Shown here one piece after another: positions 419-4,246 of a stretch of DNA of 4,246 bases; the stretch's first letter is position 1; the number at the start of each line of letters is the position of its first letter. Position numbers and translations under genes: made by a program. This DNA is from a virus (lineage: Duplodnaviria > Heunggongvirae > Uroviricota > Caudoviricetes). The stretch covers positions 1 through 4,246 of IMG/VR virus record IMGVR_UViG_2778261504_000015; one strand, written 5' to 3'. The notes under the pieces are model-generated. The model searched no databases. It was not told the origin of the DNA and saw only the letters and a list, made by a program, of their open reading frames with translations.

Positions 419-1162
419 ATGACACAGACTGAATCAGCGATTCTGGCGCATGCCCGGCGGTGTGCGCCTGCGGAGTCGTGCGGCTTCGTGGTGAGAACGC
501 CGGAGGGGGAGCGGTATATCCCTTGTGTGAATATCTCTGCAGAGCCGGAGGCGTATTTTCGTATTGCACCGGAAGACTGGCTGCGGGCAGAGATGCAGGG
601 GGAGATTGTGGCACTGGTCCACAGTCATCCCGGTGGTCTGCCCTGGCTGAGCGAGGCCGACCGGCGGCTGCAGATAAAAAGTGCACTGTCCTGGTGGCTG
701 GTCTGCCGGGGGGAAATTCATAAATTCCGCTGTGTGCCACATCTGACAGGACGGCGCTTTGAGCACGGGGTGACGGACTGTTACACGCTGTTCCGGGATG
801 CATACCATCTGGCGGGAATTGATATGCCGGATTTTGAGCGTGAGGATGACTGGTGGCGTAACGGTCAGAACCTTTACCTGGACAATATGGCGGTCACCGG
901 CTTTTACCGGGTGCCCCTGTCCTCTGCACAGGCGGGCGATATCCTGCTGTGCTGCTTTGGCGCATCGGTGGCCAATCATGCCGCCATTTACTGCGGCAAC
1001 GGTGAACTGCTTCACCATCTGCCTGAACAACTGAGTAAACGGGAGAGGTATTCCGAAAAATGGCAACGACGAACGCATTCTGTCTGGCGTCACCGCCACT
1101 GGCACGTATCTGCCTTCACGGGGATTTGCAACGATTTGGCCGCCGCCTCAGCCTGTATGTGA
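419..1162 (+). CDS. K: Tail tip assembly protein K: N-terminal JAB/MPN (JAMM) metalloprotease-like domain plus C-terminal NlpC/P60 (C40) cysteine peptidase-like domain, 247 aa as called
   Basis: ATG at 419 gives MTQTESAILAHARR..., 10 nt after the L stop, ending at TGA 1160-1162. A JAMM motif H-S-H-x7-S-x2-D (HSHPGGLPWLSEAD) is encoded at 620-661. NlpC/P60-like catalytic residues are Cys in GVTDCYTLF (codon 779-781), His in ANHAAIY (977-979) and the following LLHH. The track start at 371 is a TTG inside L and is not preferred. No obvious Shine-Dalgarno precedes 419, so translation may be coupled to L. Confidence 0.87.
   Translation: MTQTESAILAHARRCAPAESCGFVVRTPEGERYIPCVNISAEPEAYFRIAPEDWLRAEMQGEIVALVHSHPGGLPWLSEADRRLQIKSALSWWLVCRGEIHKFRCVPHLTGRRFEHGVTDCYTLFRDAYHLAGIDMPDFEREDDWWRNGQNLYLDNMAVTGFYRVPLSSAQAGDILLCCFGASVANHAAIYCGNGELLHHLPEQLSKRERYSEKWQRRTHSVWRHRHWHVSAFTGICNDLAAASACM
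1041..1048 (+). promoter_or_regulatory. Shine-Dalgarno for I (GGGAGAGG), embedded in K coding sequence
   Basis: Purine-rich GGGAGAGG lies 11 nt upstream of the I ATG at 1060. Confidence 0.5.
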
Positions 1163-1740
1163 ACACGGCAGCGGAAGCCATCCGTGCCCTGTCGATGCAG
1201 ATGCCGGGCTTTCGCCGTCAGATGAACGAAGGCTGGTACCAGATACGTATTCGCGGTGAGGACACGGCACCGGAGGCGGTGTACGCCCGTCTTCACGAAC
1301 AGCTGGGTGAGGGAACGGTCATCCACATTGTGCCGCGACTGGCCGGGGCCGGAAAAGGTGGACTGCAGATTGTGCTGGGGGCGGCAGCCATCGTGGGCTC
1401 TTTCTTCACTGCCGGGGCAACGATGGCGTTATGGGGTTCAGCCCTGGCAGCCGGTGGTTTTTCTGCCACCACGATGCTGTTTTCACTGGGGGCCAGCATG
1501 ATACTGGGTGGTGTGGCTCAGATGCTGGCCCCGAAGGCTAAAGTACCGGAGTACAAAAGCACGGATAACGGCAGACAGAACACGTACTTTTCCTCGCTGG
1601 ATAACATGATTGCACAGGGGAACCCGATGCCGGTGCCTTACGGTGAAATGCTGGTTGGCTCACGGCGAATCTCCCAGGACATCAGTACCCGTGATGAAGG
1701 CGGTGACGGGAAGGTGGTGGTTATCGGGCGGCAGGCATAA
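1060..1740 (+). CDS. I: Tail assembly protein I (ubiquitin-like N-terminal domain, Gly/Ala-rich hydrophobic C-terminal region), 226 aa
   Basis: ATG 1060 to TAA 1738-1740. The translation (MATTNAFCLASPPLARICLHGDLQRFGRR...GGLQIVLGAAAIVGSFFTAGAT...NGRQNTYFSSLDNMIAQGN...) resembles lambda gpI as I recall it. GGGAGAGG at 1041-1048 is a plausible Shine-Dalgarno. The start lies inside the 3' end of K in a different frame. Confidence 0.88.
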   Translation: MATTNAFCLASPPLARICLHGDLQRFGRRLSLYVNTAAEAIRALSMQMPGFRRQMNEGWYQIRIRGEDTAPEAVYARLHEQLGEGTVIHIVPRLAGAGKGGLQIVLGAAAIVGSFFTAGATMALWGSALAAGGFSATTMLFSLGASMILGGVAQMLAPKAKVPEYKSTDNGRQNTYFSSLDNMIAQGNPMPVPYGEMLVGSRRISQDISTRDEGGDGKVVVIGRQA

Positions 1741-1741
1741 A
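1734..1741. repeat. Left copy of 8-bp direct repeat GGCATAAA (includes the I stop codon)
   Basis: GGCATAAA at 1734-1741 and again at 1944-1951, bracketing about 210 bp. An 8-bp match could be chance. Confidence 0.3.
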
Positions 1742-1744
1742 AGC

Positions 1745-1777
1745 GAAAAAATCCCGCAGTGACCGAAGGCTGCGGGA
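1745..1777 (-). terminator. Putative intrinsic terminator for minus-strand transcription (hairpin followed by T-run on the minus strand)
   Basis: Perfect 8-bp inverted repeat TCCCGCAG (1752-1759) / CTGCGGGA (1770-1777) with a 10-nt loop. On the + strand it is preceded by AAAAAA (1746-1751), which on the minus strand is a T-run right after the stem. No T-run follows it on the + strand. Confidence 0.35.
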
Positions 1778-1784
1778 ACAGAAA

Positions 1785-1880
1785 ATGAAGATTAACCACA
1801 GGGAGTTTTGTTTTTATTGGCCCGAAAAAACTGTAACGCCCGGGAATGATATCTGCCACGGGGGCGTACAGAAAATGTGA
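1785..1880 (+). CDS. Hypothetical 31-aa small ORF inside the intergenic segment (MKINHREFCFYWPEKTVTPGNDICHGGVQKM); very low confidence
   Basis: ATG 1785 to TGA 1878-1880, with a weak GGGAA a few nt upstream. It is below the ORF track size cutoff, has no recognisable motif and is not hydrophobic. It lies between the two hairpins and upstream of the + strand terminator. Confidence 0.12.
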   Translation: MKINHREFCFYWPEKTVTPGNDICHGGVQKM

Positions 1881-1910
1881 AGAAATTCAGAAATTTTATT
1901 CCGTCATGAC

Positions 1911-1941
1911 ACAGGCACCCTCCGGGGTGCCTGTCGTTTTT
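1911..1941 (+). terminator. Rho-independent (intrinsic) terminator, + strand
   Basis: Perfect 10-bp inverted repeat ACAGGCACCC (1911-1920) / GGGTGCCTGT (1925-1934) around a 4-nt loop TCCG, followed by CG then TTTTT (1937-1941). Read directly from the sequence; stability was not computed. Confidence 0.65.
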
Positions 1942-1943
1942 GG

Positions 1944-1951
1944 GGCATAAA
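1944..1951. repeat. Right copy of 8-bp direct repeat GGCATAAA
   Basis: Exact match to 1734-1741; sits immediately after the + strand terminator T-run. Confidence 0.3.
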
Positions 1952-1956
1952 CAGAT

Positions 1957-1970
1957 TCAGACATCAGACA
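1957..1970. repeat. Perfect tandem heptamer TCAGACA x2, preceded by a degenerate third copy ACAGAT (1951-1956)
   Basis: TCAGACA at 1957-1963 and 1964-1970, read directly, ending immediately upstream of the J Shine-Dalgarno. Confidence 0.5.
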
Positions 1971-1980
1971 GGAGAGGGGG
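1971..1980 (+). promoter_or_regulatory. Shine-Dalgarno for J (GGAGAGGGGG)
   Basis: Strong purine-rich block ending 5 nt upstream of the GTG at 1986. Confidence 0.6.
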
Positions 1981-1985
1981 ACAGA

Positions 1986-4246
1986 GTGGGTAAAGGTGGC
2001 GGCAAGGCGCACACGCCGGTTGAGGCAAAGGACAATCTTAAGTCCACGCAGATGATGAGCGTGATTGATGCCATCGGTGAGGGACCGGTGGAAGGTCCGG
2101 TGAAGGGGCTGCAGAGTATTCTGGTGAACAAAACCCCGCTGACGGACACGGACGGTAATCCTGTGATACATGGTGTGACAGCGGTCTGGCGCGCCGGGGA
2201 GCAGGAGCAGACACCGCCGGAAGGTTTTGAGTCATCCGGCTCTGAAACCGCACTGGGCGTGGAAGTGACGAAGGCAAAGCCGGTGACGCGCACCATTACG
2301 TCCGCGAACATTGACCGCCTGCGGGTTACCTTCGGGGTGCAGTCACTGGTGCAGACCACCTCACAGGGTGACCGTAACCCGGCATCCGTCCGCCTGCTGA
2401 TTCAGCTGCAGCGTAACGGTAACTGGGTGACGGAAAAGGATGTCACCATTAACGGCAAGACCACCTCACAGTTCCTCGCTTCGGTGATTCTGGATAATCT
2501 GCCTCCCCGCCCCTTTAACATCCGGATGGTCAGGGAGACGGCGGACAGCACCACGGACCAGCTGCAGAATAAGACGCTCTGGTCGTCATACACCGAAATC
2601 ATCGATGTGAAACAGTGCTACCCGAACACGGCGATTGTGGGGCTGCAGGTGGATGCGGAGCAGTTTGGCGGTCAGCAGATGACGGTGAACTACCATATCC
2701 GCGGTCGCATCATTCAGGTGCCGTCAAACTATGACCCGGAAAAACGCACGTACAGCGGCATCTGGGACGGCAGCCTGAAACCGGCATACAGCAACAACCC
2801 GGCCTGGTGCCTGTGGGACATGCTGACTCACCCGCGCTACGGCATGGGAAAACGTCTGGGGGCGGCAGACGTGGACAAATGGGCGCTGTATGCCATTGCG
2901 CAGTACTGCGACCAGACGGTGCCGGATGGTTTCGGGGGCACAGAGCCGCGGATGACCTTTAATGCGTACCTGTCACAACAGCGTAAGGCGTGGGACGTTC
3001 TCAGTGATTTCTGCTCGGCGATGCGCTGTATGCCGGTATGGAACGGCCAGACGCTGACGTTCGTTCAGGACCGCCCGTCGGATGTGGTGTGGCCGTACAC
3101 CAGCAGCGATGTGGTGGTGGATGATAACGGCGTGGGGTTTCGCTACAGCTTCAGCGCCCTGAAGGACCGCCACACGGCGGTGGAGGTGAATTACACCGAC
3201 CCGCAGAACGGCTGGCAGACCTCCACGGAACTGGTGGAAGACCCGGAAGCCATACTGCGCTACGGGCGCAACCTGCTGAAGATGGATGCGTTCGGTTGCA
3301 CCAGTCGCGGTCAGGCCCACCGTGCCGGGCTGTGGGTAATAAAGACCGGACTGCTGGAAACGCAGACGGTGGATTTCACGCTCGGGTCACAGGGGCTGCG
3401 TCACACACCCGGTGACATTATTGAAATCTGTGATAACGACTATGCCGGGACCATGACCGGCGGACGTATCCTGTCCATCGATGCCGCCAGCCGCACCCTG
3501 ACACTGGACCGTGAGGTGACCCTGCCGGAGACAGGTGCCGCCACGGTGAACCTGATTAACGGCAGCGGTAAGCCGGTGAGCGTGGCCATCACTGCACACC
3601 CCGCGCCGGACCGGATACAGGTCAGCACCCTGCCTGATGGTGTGGAGACATACGGTGTATGGGGACTCTCCCTGCCGTCACTGCGTCGTCGCCTGTTCCG
3701 CTGTGTCTCCATCCGGGAAAACACGGACGGCACCTTTGCCATCACGGCGGTGCAGCACGTACCGGAAAAGGAAGCCATCGTGGATAACGGGGCCAGCTTT
3801 GAGCCGCAGTCAGGCACCCTGAACAGCGTCATCCCTCCGGCAGTGCAGCACCTGACGGTGGAGGTGAGCGCAGCTGACGGTCAGTATCTGGCGCAGGCGA
3901 AATGGGACACGCCGCGGGTGGTGAAGGGCGTGCGCTTCAGTCTGCGCCTGACCAGTGGAAGCGGTCAGGACAGCCGTCTGGTGACCACCGCCATCACCGC
4001 GGATACAGAGCACCGTTTCAGCGGTCTGCCGCCGGGGGAATACACCCTGACGGTCAGGGCAATTAACAGTTATGGCCAGCAGGGCGAACCGGCCACCACC
4101 ACCTTCCGGATTAACGCGCCAGCAAAACCCGCCACCATTGAACTGACACCGGGCTATTTTCAGATAACGGCGGTCCCGCGTCTTGCGGTGTATGACCCGA
4201 CGGTACAGTTTGAGTTCTGGTTTTCGGAGACAAAAATCGCAGACAT
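1986..4246 (+). CDS. J: Host specificity protein J / central tail fiber (tail tip attachment protein), N-terminal ~753 codons; 3' end beyond window
   Basis: GTG at 1986 is preceded by the strong Shine-Dalgarno GGAGAGGGGG (1971-1980). It is the first canonical start after the in-frame stop TGA at 1878-1880. The translation [39 protein letters not shown]... stays open to the window end and closely resembles the lambda gpJ N-terminus as I recall it. It is absent from the ORF track only because it has no stop within the window. Confidence 0.92.

Follow-up and report, generated by a model that had tools for sequence, protein, structure and literature searches.

Between the lambda-like tail genes I and J of the window (the whole stretch of 4,246 nucleotides analysed here) lies a 245-bp spacer that is a real element but an already known one, versions of which have been published as PasB in EPEC and as EcOnc22-24 in EHEC. 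We consider it likely that the spacer is a moron-like cassette in an EHEC/EPEC-type lambdoid tail operon, and that it encodes a trans-acting, Hfq-dependent small RNA (sRNA) antisense to the tail genes. The window carries an allele of the PasB/EcOnc22-24 locus with a predicted transcript of ~78 nt and, by analogy with the published versions, presumed expression. The first-pass annotation had suspected an autonomous small-RNA or moron-type gene in this place, and the match of the locus to a published sRNA gene supports that suspicion. It had left the strand open; northern probe, CLASH reads and RIL-seq coordinates now concur on the minus strand for two sister alleles.

The features of the spacer and its flanking genes are listed in Table 1. 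From the I stop codon (TAA at 1738-1740) to the GTG start of J at 1986 the distance is 245 bp, as had been claimed, and the GC content of 0.478 in the gap is lower than that of I (0.595) and J (0.604), also as described. Only 5 nt separate the TAA from the template of the small RNA's U-tract. The spacer had been said to hold no convincing ORF, and we agree: the two small plus-strand ORFs (1785-1880 and 1846-1950) were rejected as genes because their start codons are not conserved among the alleles (ATG to ACG, and ATGATA to ATTATT). In lambda, I and J had been described as lying a few nucleotides apart, which was wrong, the actual lambda gap being 60 bp. The segment is extra DNA compared with relatives all the same, since the gap is 59-60 bp in lambda-type phages and only 2-14 bp in those of Morganella, Proteus, Providencia and Xenorhabdus.

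Table 1. Coordinates of the features in and around the I-J spacer of the window.
Feature	Position	Strand	Basis
Tail assembly gene I	1060..1740	+	ORF list; Pfam Lambda_tail_I, E 5.5e-16; 68% identical to lambda I
Predicted small RNA, 78 nt, G1823 to U1746, GGGCCAAUAAAAACAAAACUCCCUGUGGUUAAUCUUCAUUUUCUGUUCCCGCAGCCUUCGGUCACUGCGGGAUUUUUU	1746..1823	-	PasB/EcOnc22-24 homology, position, strand
sRNA terminator hairpin, stem CCCGCAG/CUGCGGG, then U6 at 1751-1746	1752..1777	-	exact inverted repeat
Candidate seed, single-stranded	1785..1806	-	alignment of 23 alleles; putative seed role
-10 hexamer TACAGT	1830..1835	-	TAnnnT kept in all alleles; anchor GCGTTAnnGT conserved
CRP-like site TGTGA-N6-TCAGA, ~60 bp upstream of sRNA 5' end	1876..1891	.	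single window match, 0.03 expected
Terminator-like hairpin, 10-bp stem, loop UCCG, then T5; 45 nt before J start	1911..1941	+	terminator scan
J leader: second GGCATAAA 1944-1951, two TCAGACA 1957-1970, purine-rich ribosome-binding site 1971-1980	1942..1985	+	sequence
Gene J (tip attachment / host specificity)	1986..4246	+	GTG start, continues past window end; Pfam GpJ domains

Both hairpins were found where they had been placed, with exact inverted repeats at 1752-1759/1770-1777 and 1911-1920/1925-1934. They had been called convergent and taken to insulate one transcription unit, which is incorrect: they face outward, the left one stopping minus-strand and the right one plus-strand transcription. 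The left hairpin is a minus-strand terminator because its T-run sits on the minus strand. Thus only the left hairpin belongs to the small RNA, and the right one is a separate element.

For the sister alleles, transcript, strand, size and Hfq dependence are taken from the literature. EcOnc22, EcOnc23 and EcOnc24 of O157 Sakai were reported as Hfq-CRAC peaks on the chromosome plus strand with a northern band of ~85 nt, and they are destabilised in delta-hfq (Tree et al. 2014, PMC4104026; Waters et al. 2017, PMC5286369; review PMC7873438). Their peaks fall in the 240-bp I-J gaps of the prophages Sp15 (Stx1), Sp14 and Sp11, whose tail genes lie on the chromosome minus strand. Since the northern probe is tail-sense, the RNA that it detects is antisense, and the RNase E-CLASH hybrid reads are GCCUGAAAAAUAACUCCAUAACGUUAAUCUUCA, the minus strand of the Sakai I-J gap. 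The sole CLASH hybrids of the Sakai alleles are those with yjbJ and ECs5349, at 1-2 reads and with non-significant p-values; in the hybrid with yjbJ, pairing runs through the variable stretch CCAUAACGUU, which corresponds to that of the window allele. PasB is annotated on the minus strand of NC_011601 at 1466343-1466261 (83 nt), with a log2 fold change of -6.8 in delta-hfq (Pearl Mizrahi et al. 2021, PMC8550237; Zhu, Shabalina and Storz 2026, bioRxiv 10.64898/2026.05.13.724894), and 37 unvalidated RIL-seq partners were listed for it. Its slot is the I-J gap of prophage PP6 in E2348/69 (EPEC O127:H6), antisense to the tail genes, and its RIL-seq fragments terminate exactly on the left hairpin and U-run. 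In the literature on EcOnc22-24 and on PasB, we found no published link between the two.

Through blastn comparison, the minus strand of the window matched PasB at 1818-1746 (80% over 75 nt, E 5e-13) and EcOnc22 at 1746-1818 (77% over 71 nt, E 4e-8); globally, the sRNA of the window allele is 67% identical to PasB and 61% to EcOnc22. Of the scaffold, the window allele has kept the terminator stem that never varies, the U-tract behind it, the UUAAUCUUC core, a -10 of the TAnnnT pattern and the block further upstream. Its resemblance to PasB covers the I-J slot, the antisense strand, the terminator stem and U-tract, a core of the UUAAUCUUC type, the pattern of the -10, the TGTGA-N6-TCAGA block upstream of it and the hairpin on the right; the two differ in the 5' third, in the hexamer next to the core (UCACAU in PasB, CUGUGG in the window) and in the terminator loop. 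EcOnc22-24 have the same slot, strand and scaffold as the window, with a nearly identical J leader and right hairpin, and differ in the variable stretch (CCAUAACG in EcOnc, CCCUGUGG in the window), in the length of the spacer (240 versus 245 bp) and in the I C-terminus and stop context. Size, expression and Hfq dependence were shown for the PasB allele, whereas the window allele is known from its sequence. In the published PasB survey the variants differ by only a few nucleotides, so the window allele probably lies outside that survey. Among the Sakai prophages searched (Sp3, Sp9, Sp10, Sp11, Sp12, Sp14 and Sp15; Sp4, Sp6, Sp8 and Sp17 lay outside the search) the window allele was absent. O26:H11 11368 (NC_013361) carries the 245-bp allele with 100% identity. 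Rfam returned nothing in the spacer, either with E up to 10 on 1600-2100 or at the gathering score on the whole window.

The 5' and 3' ends of the window sRNA were placed by alignment with the mapped ends of the sister alleles and should be read as predicted. The RNA is predicted to fold into a largely unpaired 5' region followed by the terminator hairpin and U6. Within the unpaired part, the candidate seed is made up of ACUCC (1806-1802), which is nearly constant, the hexamer CUGUGG (1801-1796), which is specific to the allele, and UUAAUCUUCAU (1795-1785), again nearly constant, and a pairing role of 1785-1806 is what this layout suggests. The terminator stem is identical in 23 distinct alleles, the window included, and the loop varies; a covariation test of the left stem was uninformative because the stem never varies.

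No convincing sigma70 promoter had been recognised by eye, and a consensus scan of both strands was likewise without a match. Of the signals expected for a moron, the spacer holds a clear terminator, and for the promoter only the conserved TAnnnT, which is correctly spaced from the mapped 5' ends, PasB as annotated and the CLASH reads both beginning 6-7 nt downstream of it. A weak -35-like TGGCAG is found at 1858-1853 on the minus strand. A more distal -10, TATCAT (1851-1846), would imply an RNA of 96 nt; we rejected it, as the PasB end and three CLASH reads begin 16 nt further downstream. Upstream of the promoter, the CRP-like TGTGAAGAAATTCAGA matches TGTGA-N6-TCACA in 9 of the 10 half-site bases. 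It is present in all non-sodC alleles, and in 50 of 52 loci its centre is 48.5 bp from the -10. Counted from the RNA start, the centre lies at -59.5 for the annotated PasB end, at -60.5 for the Sakai CLASH 5' end and at -60.5 for the predicted window start, that is 1-2 bp off the canonical class I position of -61.5, with 5' ends that are imprecise at the nucleotide level. The site is a candidate activator site for the weak sRNA promoter. An indirect hint of dependence on CRP-cAMP is that the PasB level is higher in LB than in glucose-rich DMEM, two conditions that differ in temperature and growth state too (PMC8550237; bioRxiv 10.64898/2026.05.13.724894).

From these features, a mechanism may be proposed. 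Transcription would start near G1823 from a weak promoter (-10 TACAGT with a poor -35) that is probably activator-dependent, the candidate being the invariant CRP-like site ~60 bp upstream. The polymerase would move leftwards through the A/U-rich, unstructured sRNA body and stop at the hairpin 1777-1752 and its U-tract, 5 nt short of the I stop, giving a product of ~78 nt. The sRNA would be produced from the repressed prophage, may bind Hfq as its sisters do, and could base-pair with mRNAs of the host or of a prophage, using the single-stranded ACUCC-NNNNNN-UUAAUCUUCAU. As the hexamer in its middle varies between alleles, co-resident prophages would supply sRNAs of different specificity. On the other strand, the right hairpin and T-run would block ordinary sense transcription, and Q-modified polymerase may read through them in lytic growth. 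We infer both the CRP control and this role of the right hairpin for the window allele.

The sRNA is perfectly complementary to its own I-J spacer and therefore would pair with the late transcript after induction. It is thus conceivable that it acts mainly in cis on its own late mRNA and not on host genes in trans, through cleavage of the I-J mRNA, altered J expression or interference by convergent transcription. The position of the gene, wholly inside the late operon on the opposite strand, fits such an action, and the core and hairpin common to the alleles would allow cross-pairing between co-resident prophages. However, both studied alleles are expressed in uninduced lysogens, where the late operon is silent; the sister alleles are bound by Hfq and occur in chimeras with core-genome and virulence transcripts that are unlinked to them (the 37 partners of PasB); and lambda and Morganellaceae-type phages build their tails without the module. 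We regard a mainly cis-acting sRNA as unlikely, and prefer the trans-acting one.

The right hairpin folds far better than shuffled sequences (z -3.9). Its stem shows one compensatory change between alleles (C:G to U:A), a weak signal that 81 of 500 shuffles equal or exceed. Lambda-type gaps have a different, non-homologous hairpin and T-run at the same place before J; the lambda hairpin is described from sequence and fold only, and the terminator scan did not call it. Because lambda's own 60-bp gap has this counterpart, the right hairpin is not part of the insert. The J leader type that follows it in the window is shared with Sakai Sp15, and other alleles carry other leader types.

A strong plus-strand hairpin with a T-run, preceded by DNA that belongs to the most conserved part of the spacer (block 1871-1941), could also mark the end of a second small transcript on the plus strand, with the block 1871-1910 as its body, which would either have its own start within the spacer or derive by processing from the 3' end of the I message. 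Opposite-strand sRNA dyads are known at the PR' moron site. But no plus-strand promoter appeared in the scan, no Hfq peak lies on that strand at Sp11, Sp14 or Sp15, and there is no plus-strand I-J intergenic entry among those EPEC table entries that were searched. The equivalent hairpin of lambda stands in a 60-bp gap, too short for a gene. Moreover, in alleles of 341-343 bp the conserved block stays on the small-RNA side and the right hairpin is exchanged, an arrangement that fits a block serving as regulatory DNA upstream of the minus-strand gene. We consider a plus-strand transcript decidedly improbable.

As for the origin of the segment, the two copies of GGCATAAA claimed at 1734-1741 and 1944-1951 are both present. 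They had been proposed as boundaries of an insertion or indel, a proposal that did not hold. The repeats do lie 210 bp apart, and the gaps of relatives are shorter, as a recent insertion or a repeat-mediated indel bounded by them would have it. However, the flanks share an 8-mer in 11.5% of shuffles, so an 8-bp repeat is at chance level, and a longer 10-nt repeat, ACAGAAAATG, occurs inside the segment. Neither copy is conserved: copy 1 overlaps the allele-specific I stop codon and copy 2 lies within an allele-specific J leader, while Sakai Sp15 without copy 1, and Sp10 and other J leaders without copy 2, all still carry the module. Among the 211 I-J junctions examined no excision allele with the predicted 35-nt I-J junction was present, nor was an empty site with a single repeat copy, the pattern of a target-site duplication, found. 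We give almost no credence to a recent insertion or indel of this kind.

The first-pass annotation had proposed alignment of I-J junctions in search of empty-site alleles. The module proved absent in lambda-type relatives, and none of the junctions is empty within this lineage. The left hairpin was found in 80 of 80 loci with an I at least 96% identical to that of the window and in 0 of 80 lambda-type loci. Since all loci of the first group carry it, the alleles that lack the module do not represent empty sites of this lineage; they come from an I/J lineage that has diverged from it (I proteins 68% identical).

Among 5426 complete E. coli genomes, 781 carry the 245-bp segment, usually more than once (median 4 places per genome). 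Many Stx1a and Stx2a phages have it as well, without annotation. The I-J junction also holds the Cu/Zn superoxide dismutase gene sodC (27 of 77 loci, and Sakai Sp10). The spacer alleles are mosaic, with breakpoints inside the conserved blocks, and one recombinant allele has a C-A mismatch in the right hairpin. Such mosaicism would also be seen if the spacer were non-functional DNA, a recombination joint between I and J with incidental hairpins. Against this stand the Hfq-dependent transcripts documented for two alleles, the invariance of terminator stem, core and -10 pattern across diverged alleles, and the occurrence of the module in all 80 loci; we consider non-functional mosaic DNA very improbable. 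The Hfq-CRAC table has no entry for the alleles of Sakai Sp9, of the sodC-linked Sp10 and of the PasB-like Sp12, indicating that an allele can exist without detectable Hfq binding under those conditions.

The predicted sRNA gene was compared with other elements of lambdoid prophages. The prophage 'anti-sRNAs' of the AgvB/AsxR type and HnrS (EcOnc10-12) are likewise short, Hfq-binding, lysogen-expressed sRNAs of EHEC lambdoid prophages, and they too occur in several copies, as families whose 3' part is conserved and whose pairing part varies. They differ in position, AgvB and AsxR being downstream of PR' beside the lysis genes and HnrS between Rz and terminase; they have no sequence match to the window. 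AgvB and AsxR were rejected as the identity of the element by their location at the PR' moron site, and their Rfam models gave no match to the window; HnrS, considered for its copy number, was rejected by its coordinates between Rz/DNase and terminase. Like the morons of lambdoid phages (Juhala et al. 2000, as cited in later work), the segment is extra low-GC DNA between genes that abut in relatives and has its own terminator, a presumed promoter and presumed expression from the prophage. It differs from them in its cargo, a non-coding RNA of ~78 nt instead of a protein gene.

A further and tentative possibility is that PasB, EcOnc22-24 and the window are alleles of one hypervariable I-J sRNA locus, in which a 6-10-nt seed cassette is exchangeable on a fixed scaffold; poly-lysogens, with a median of 4 copies, might then hold a panel of carbon-status-controlled sRNAs, at a junction that also docks sodC. 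The scaffold, as we might speculate, would comprise a CRP-type activator site, the weak promoter, an A-rich/ACUCC stretch, the UUAAUCUUC core and the terminator. If this is true, the sRNAs in the panel of a poly-lysogen would have different host targets.

Prophage-borne Hfq sRNAs at moron sites are a well-established kind of element, so the biological gain is incremental. The element is common in E. coli and found in many Stx-converting phages, but their records leave it unannotated and Rfam has no model for it. Recognition of the family unites the two published names, PasB and EcOnc22-24, and the picture of PasB as barely variable is the result of a search confined to close relatives; it also suggests an architecture open to test, in which the scaffold is constant, the seed variable and CRP control possible. 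For annotation, where the I-J gap of an E. coli prophage is long, it is to be read as a gene and not as junk.

The window carries part of a lambdoid tail operon (L, its end only, K, I and J), whose coordinates are given in the table together with the features of the I-J spacer. Gene I starts 103 nt within gene K in another frame (window 1060-1162), and the same overlap is found in lambda (K 14276-14875, I 14773-15444).

Coordinates of tail genes and spacer features in the window
Feature	Position	Strand	Basis
L	ends 408	+	ORF list
K	419-1162	+	JAB plus NlpC/P60 (Pfam)
I	1060-1740	+	Lambda_tail_I (Pfam)
I-J spacer	1741-1985		245 bp
Left hairpin	1752-1777		inverted repeat
CRP-like site, TGTGA-N6-TCAGA	1876-1891		9/10 match to CRP half-sites
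Right hairpin, then T-run	1911-1934	+	terminator scan; fold z -3.9
J	GTG 1986 onwards	+	GpJ (Pfam)

The length of the spacer, its lower GC (0.478 versus 0.595 and 0.604 in the flanks) and its two inverted repeats were all as described in the first-pass annotation, and the right hairpin with its T-run also scored as a plus-strand terminator. The two hairpins had been read as convergent, but the terminators point outwards, because the A-run at 1746-1751 precedes the left hairpin on the plus strand and is a T-run on the minus strand. The 8-bp direct repeat GGCATAAA, proposed as the boundary of an indel, is present at 1734-1741 and 1944-1951, but it is at chance level: the flanks share an 8-mer in 11.5% of shuffles, and a longer repeat of 10 nt lies inside the segment. 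Both copies of GGCATAAA fall in allele-specific sequence, the first over the I stop context and the second in one type of J leader, and one or the other is missing from other carriers of the module. The exact 10-nt repeat, ACAGAAAATG (1778-1787 and 1868-1877), has one copy adjoining the left, minus-strand terminator and the other abutting the CRP-like site; it is limited to the window's allele type and probably arose by chance. A 7-bp unit, TCAGACA, stands in two tandem copies at 1957-1970 just before the J ribosome-binding site and in four copies in another locus (L081), so the J leader is polymorphic in length.

A near-identical 245-bp spacer was found in many Stx1a- and Stx2a-converting phages and in 781 of 5426 complete E. 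coli genomes (median 4 places per genome), including O157, O26 and O111 strains, and no annotation lies beneath it in the genomes carrying it.

Two sets of published small RNAs map to this place. EcOnc22, EcOnc23 and EcOnc24 are three identical Hfq-CRAC peaks on the chromosome plus strand of O157 Sakai, in prophages Sp15, Sp14 and Sp11, and give a northern band of about 85 nt that is destabilised in a delta-hfq strain (Tree et al. 2014, PMC4104026). In sequence, all three places correspond to a 240-bp gap flanked by the tail assembly gene and the host specificity gene, and the tail genes there run along the minus strand of the chromosome. The probe published for the northern blot is tail-sense sequence mapping beside the left hairpin, and the RNase E-CLASH hybrid reads of all three spell GCCTGAAAAATAACTCCATAACGTTAATCTTCA, which is the tail-sense spacer in reverse complement; the transcript is therefore antisense to the tail operon, with its end at the left hairpin. 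PasB of EPEC E2348/69, annotated at NC_011601 1466343-1466261 (minus strand, 83 nt, prophage PP6) and strongly Hfq-dependent (PMC8550237), occupies the I-J spacer of PP6, likewise antisense to the tail genes, and one of its RIL-seq fragments is precisely the hairpin and U-run. EcOnc22-24 sit in the same slot as PasB, on the same strand, with 67% identity. In the PasB table, EHEC homologues are given for PasA and PasD and none for PasB (PMC8550237 Table S6), and the one paper found that names EcOnc22 says nothing of PasB; it seems that nobody has yet linked the two names (PMC8550237 Table S6; PMC4104026 Table S2). A 2021 review still enters EcOnc22-24 without targets, and hybrids with yjbJ and ECs5349 in the CLASH data comprise 1-2 reads with non-significant p-values.

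The window element is a member of this PasB/EcOnc22-24 locus and a distinct, undescribed allele. On the minus strand, PasB matches window 1818-1746 with 80% identity across 75 nt (67% globally) and EcOnc22 matches with 77% (61% globally); the window allele was not found in the Sakai prophages examined. The alignment covered 23 distinct alleles, drawn from 80 IMG/VR loci, from Sakai and from one additional assembly. Invariant or nearly so were the terminator stem CCCGCAG/CTGCGGG and the U-tract after it, the AAUCUU core, an A-rich stretch that closes with (A)CUCC-like sequence, and a TAnnnT hexamer with a T-run behind it; variable were the terminator loop, the hexamer adjoining the core and the 5' third. 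We take TAnnnT as the -10 element because the annotated 5' end of PasB and three independent CLASH read 5' ends lie 6-7 nt downstream of it, and the window RNA is therefore predicted to start near G1823 and end in the U-tract at 1751-1746, a length of 78 nt. The terminator is the one structured part of its predicted fold, and lack of structure elsewhere is usual for Hfq small RNAs. We infer that the window allele would be expressed. The Sp9, sodC-linked Sp10 and PasB-like Sp12 alleles have no entry in the Sakai Hfq-CRAC table, so carrying the gene is no guarantee of a detectable Hfq-bound RNA in every condition. In Sp9 (L220:6500-6790) the K/I region is mostly deleted and the terminator hairpin is shortened to CCCGCA-GAGT-TGCGGG, with no Hfq peak listed. 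The earlier suspicion of a small-RNA moron was correct and the element is real and functional-looking, though the unit's boundaries and repeats had been mis-assigned.

The best-conserved stretch of the entire spacer is 1871-1910, which includes the CRP-like site, the sole match in the window (0.03 expected). The distance from its centre to the -10 is 48.5 bp in 50 of 52 loci despite differing intervening sequence. Relative to the reported 5' ends, the centre is at -59.5 to -60.5, close to the -61.5 position of class I CRP promoters. The -35 is poor (TGGCAG) and the promoter scan revealed no consensus promoter, which fits an activator-dependent promoter. PasB is reported to be more abundant in LB (27 C) than in DMEM, a difference compatible with CRP control, with temperature and growth state confounded. 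We hypothesize that CRP may control the small RNA.

Hairpins such as the right one recur on the approach to J, outside the small-RNA cassette. The 60-bp lambda I-J gap (L086:746-805; lambda 15445-15504) contains a GC-rich hairpin with a T-rich run after it, immediately ahead of the J ribosome-binding site (fold z -2.8), kept in 80/80 lambda-type loci (L087-L166) with the loop alone varying; no description of it was found in the literature examined. It occupies the same place as the window's right hairpin, with no sequence homology. The 336-343-bp alleles (Sakai Sp12, L222:11393-11733 reverse strand; L074; L168) retain a PasB-like small RNA and the upstream block, after which come a plus-strand hairpin of yet another sequence (AAAACCCCGGTATCTGCTGATACCGGGGTTTT), the third kind at this place, and roughly 100 more bases to J, and the sodC alleles lack the right hairpin. 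The lambda counterpart, this exchange and this loss therefore argue that the right hairpin is not a cassette boundary. It would likely act as a terminator obeyed by ordinary polymerase and ignored by Q-modified polymerase, and/or stabilise the upstream message at its 3' end. Covariation gives the stem thin support: a single compensatory change (C:G to U:A), which 81 of 500 shuffles equalled or surpassed.

The left hairpin, in the same orientation, is present in 80/80 loci encoding an I protein with 96% or higher identity to that of the window and in 0/80 lambda-type loci. Across 77 junctions (73 of the 80 IMG/VR loci, three Sakai copies and the window) the gap was 234-260 bp in 49, 343 bp in one and 851-852 bp in 27. 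The long form, found in L076 (851 bp), 26 other IMG/VR loci and Sakai Sp10 (L221:8675-9202), carries a minus-strand Cu/Zn superoxide dismutase gene (Pfam Sod_Cu PF00080, E 4e-32) between the small-RNA body and J, replacing the CRP-like block and right hairpin and keeping the small-RNA body and left hairpin. The gap is 2-14 bp in more distant relatives from Morganella, Proteus, Providencia and Xenorhabdus. The spacer therefore represents a site for cargo that has grown out of a tight junction. Forms lacking the module are diverged I/J lineages (68% I protein identity), not empty sites of the window's lineage. Lambda-identical or E. coli prophage I-J DNA was also met on short, low-coverage contigs of unrelated GTDB species representatives (L168, L170-L184, L200-L203, L206, L207, L211, L212, L214, L215), including Streptomyces, Shewanella, Chromatium, Pseudomonas, Paenibacillus and Bradyrhizobium, and is almost certainly contamination by lambda or E. 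coli DNA.

The novelty is modest: two published names, PasB and EcOnc22-24, are equated, an allelic series with a variable central hexamer is described together with an invariant CRP-like sequence match, and a lambda counterpart of the pre-J hairpin is recognised.
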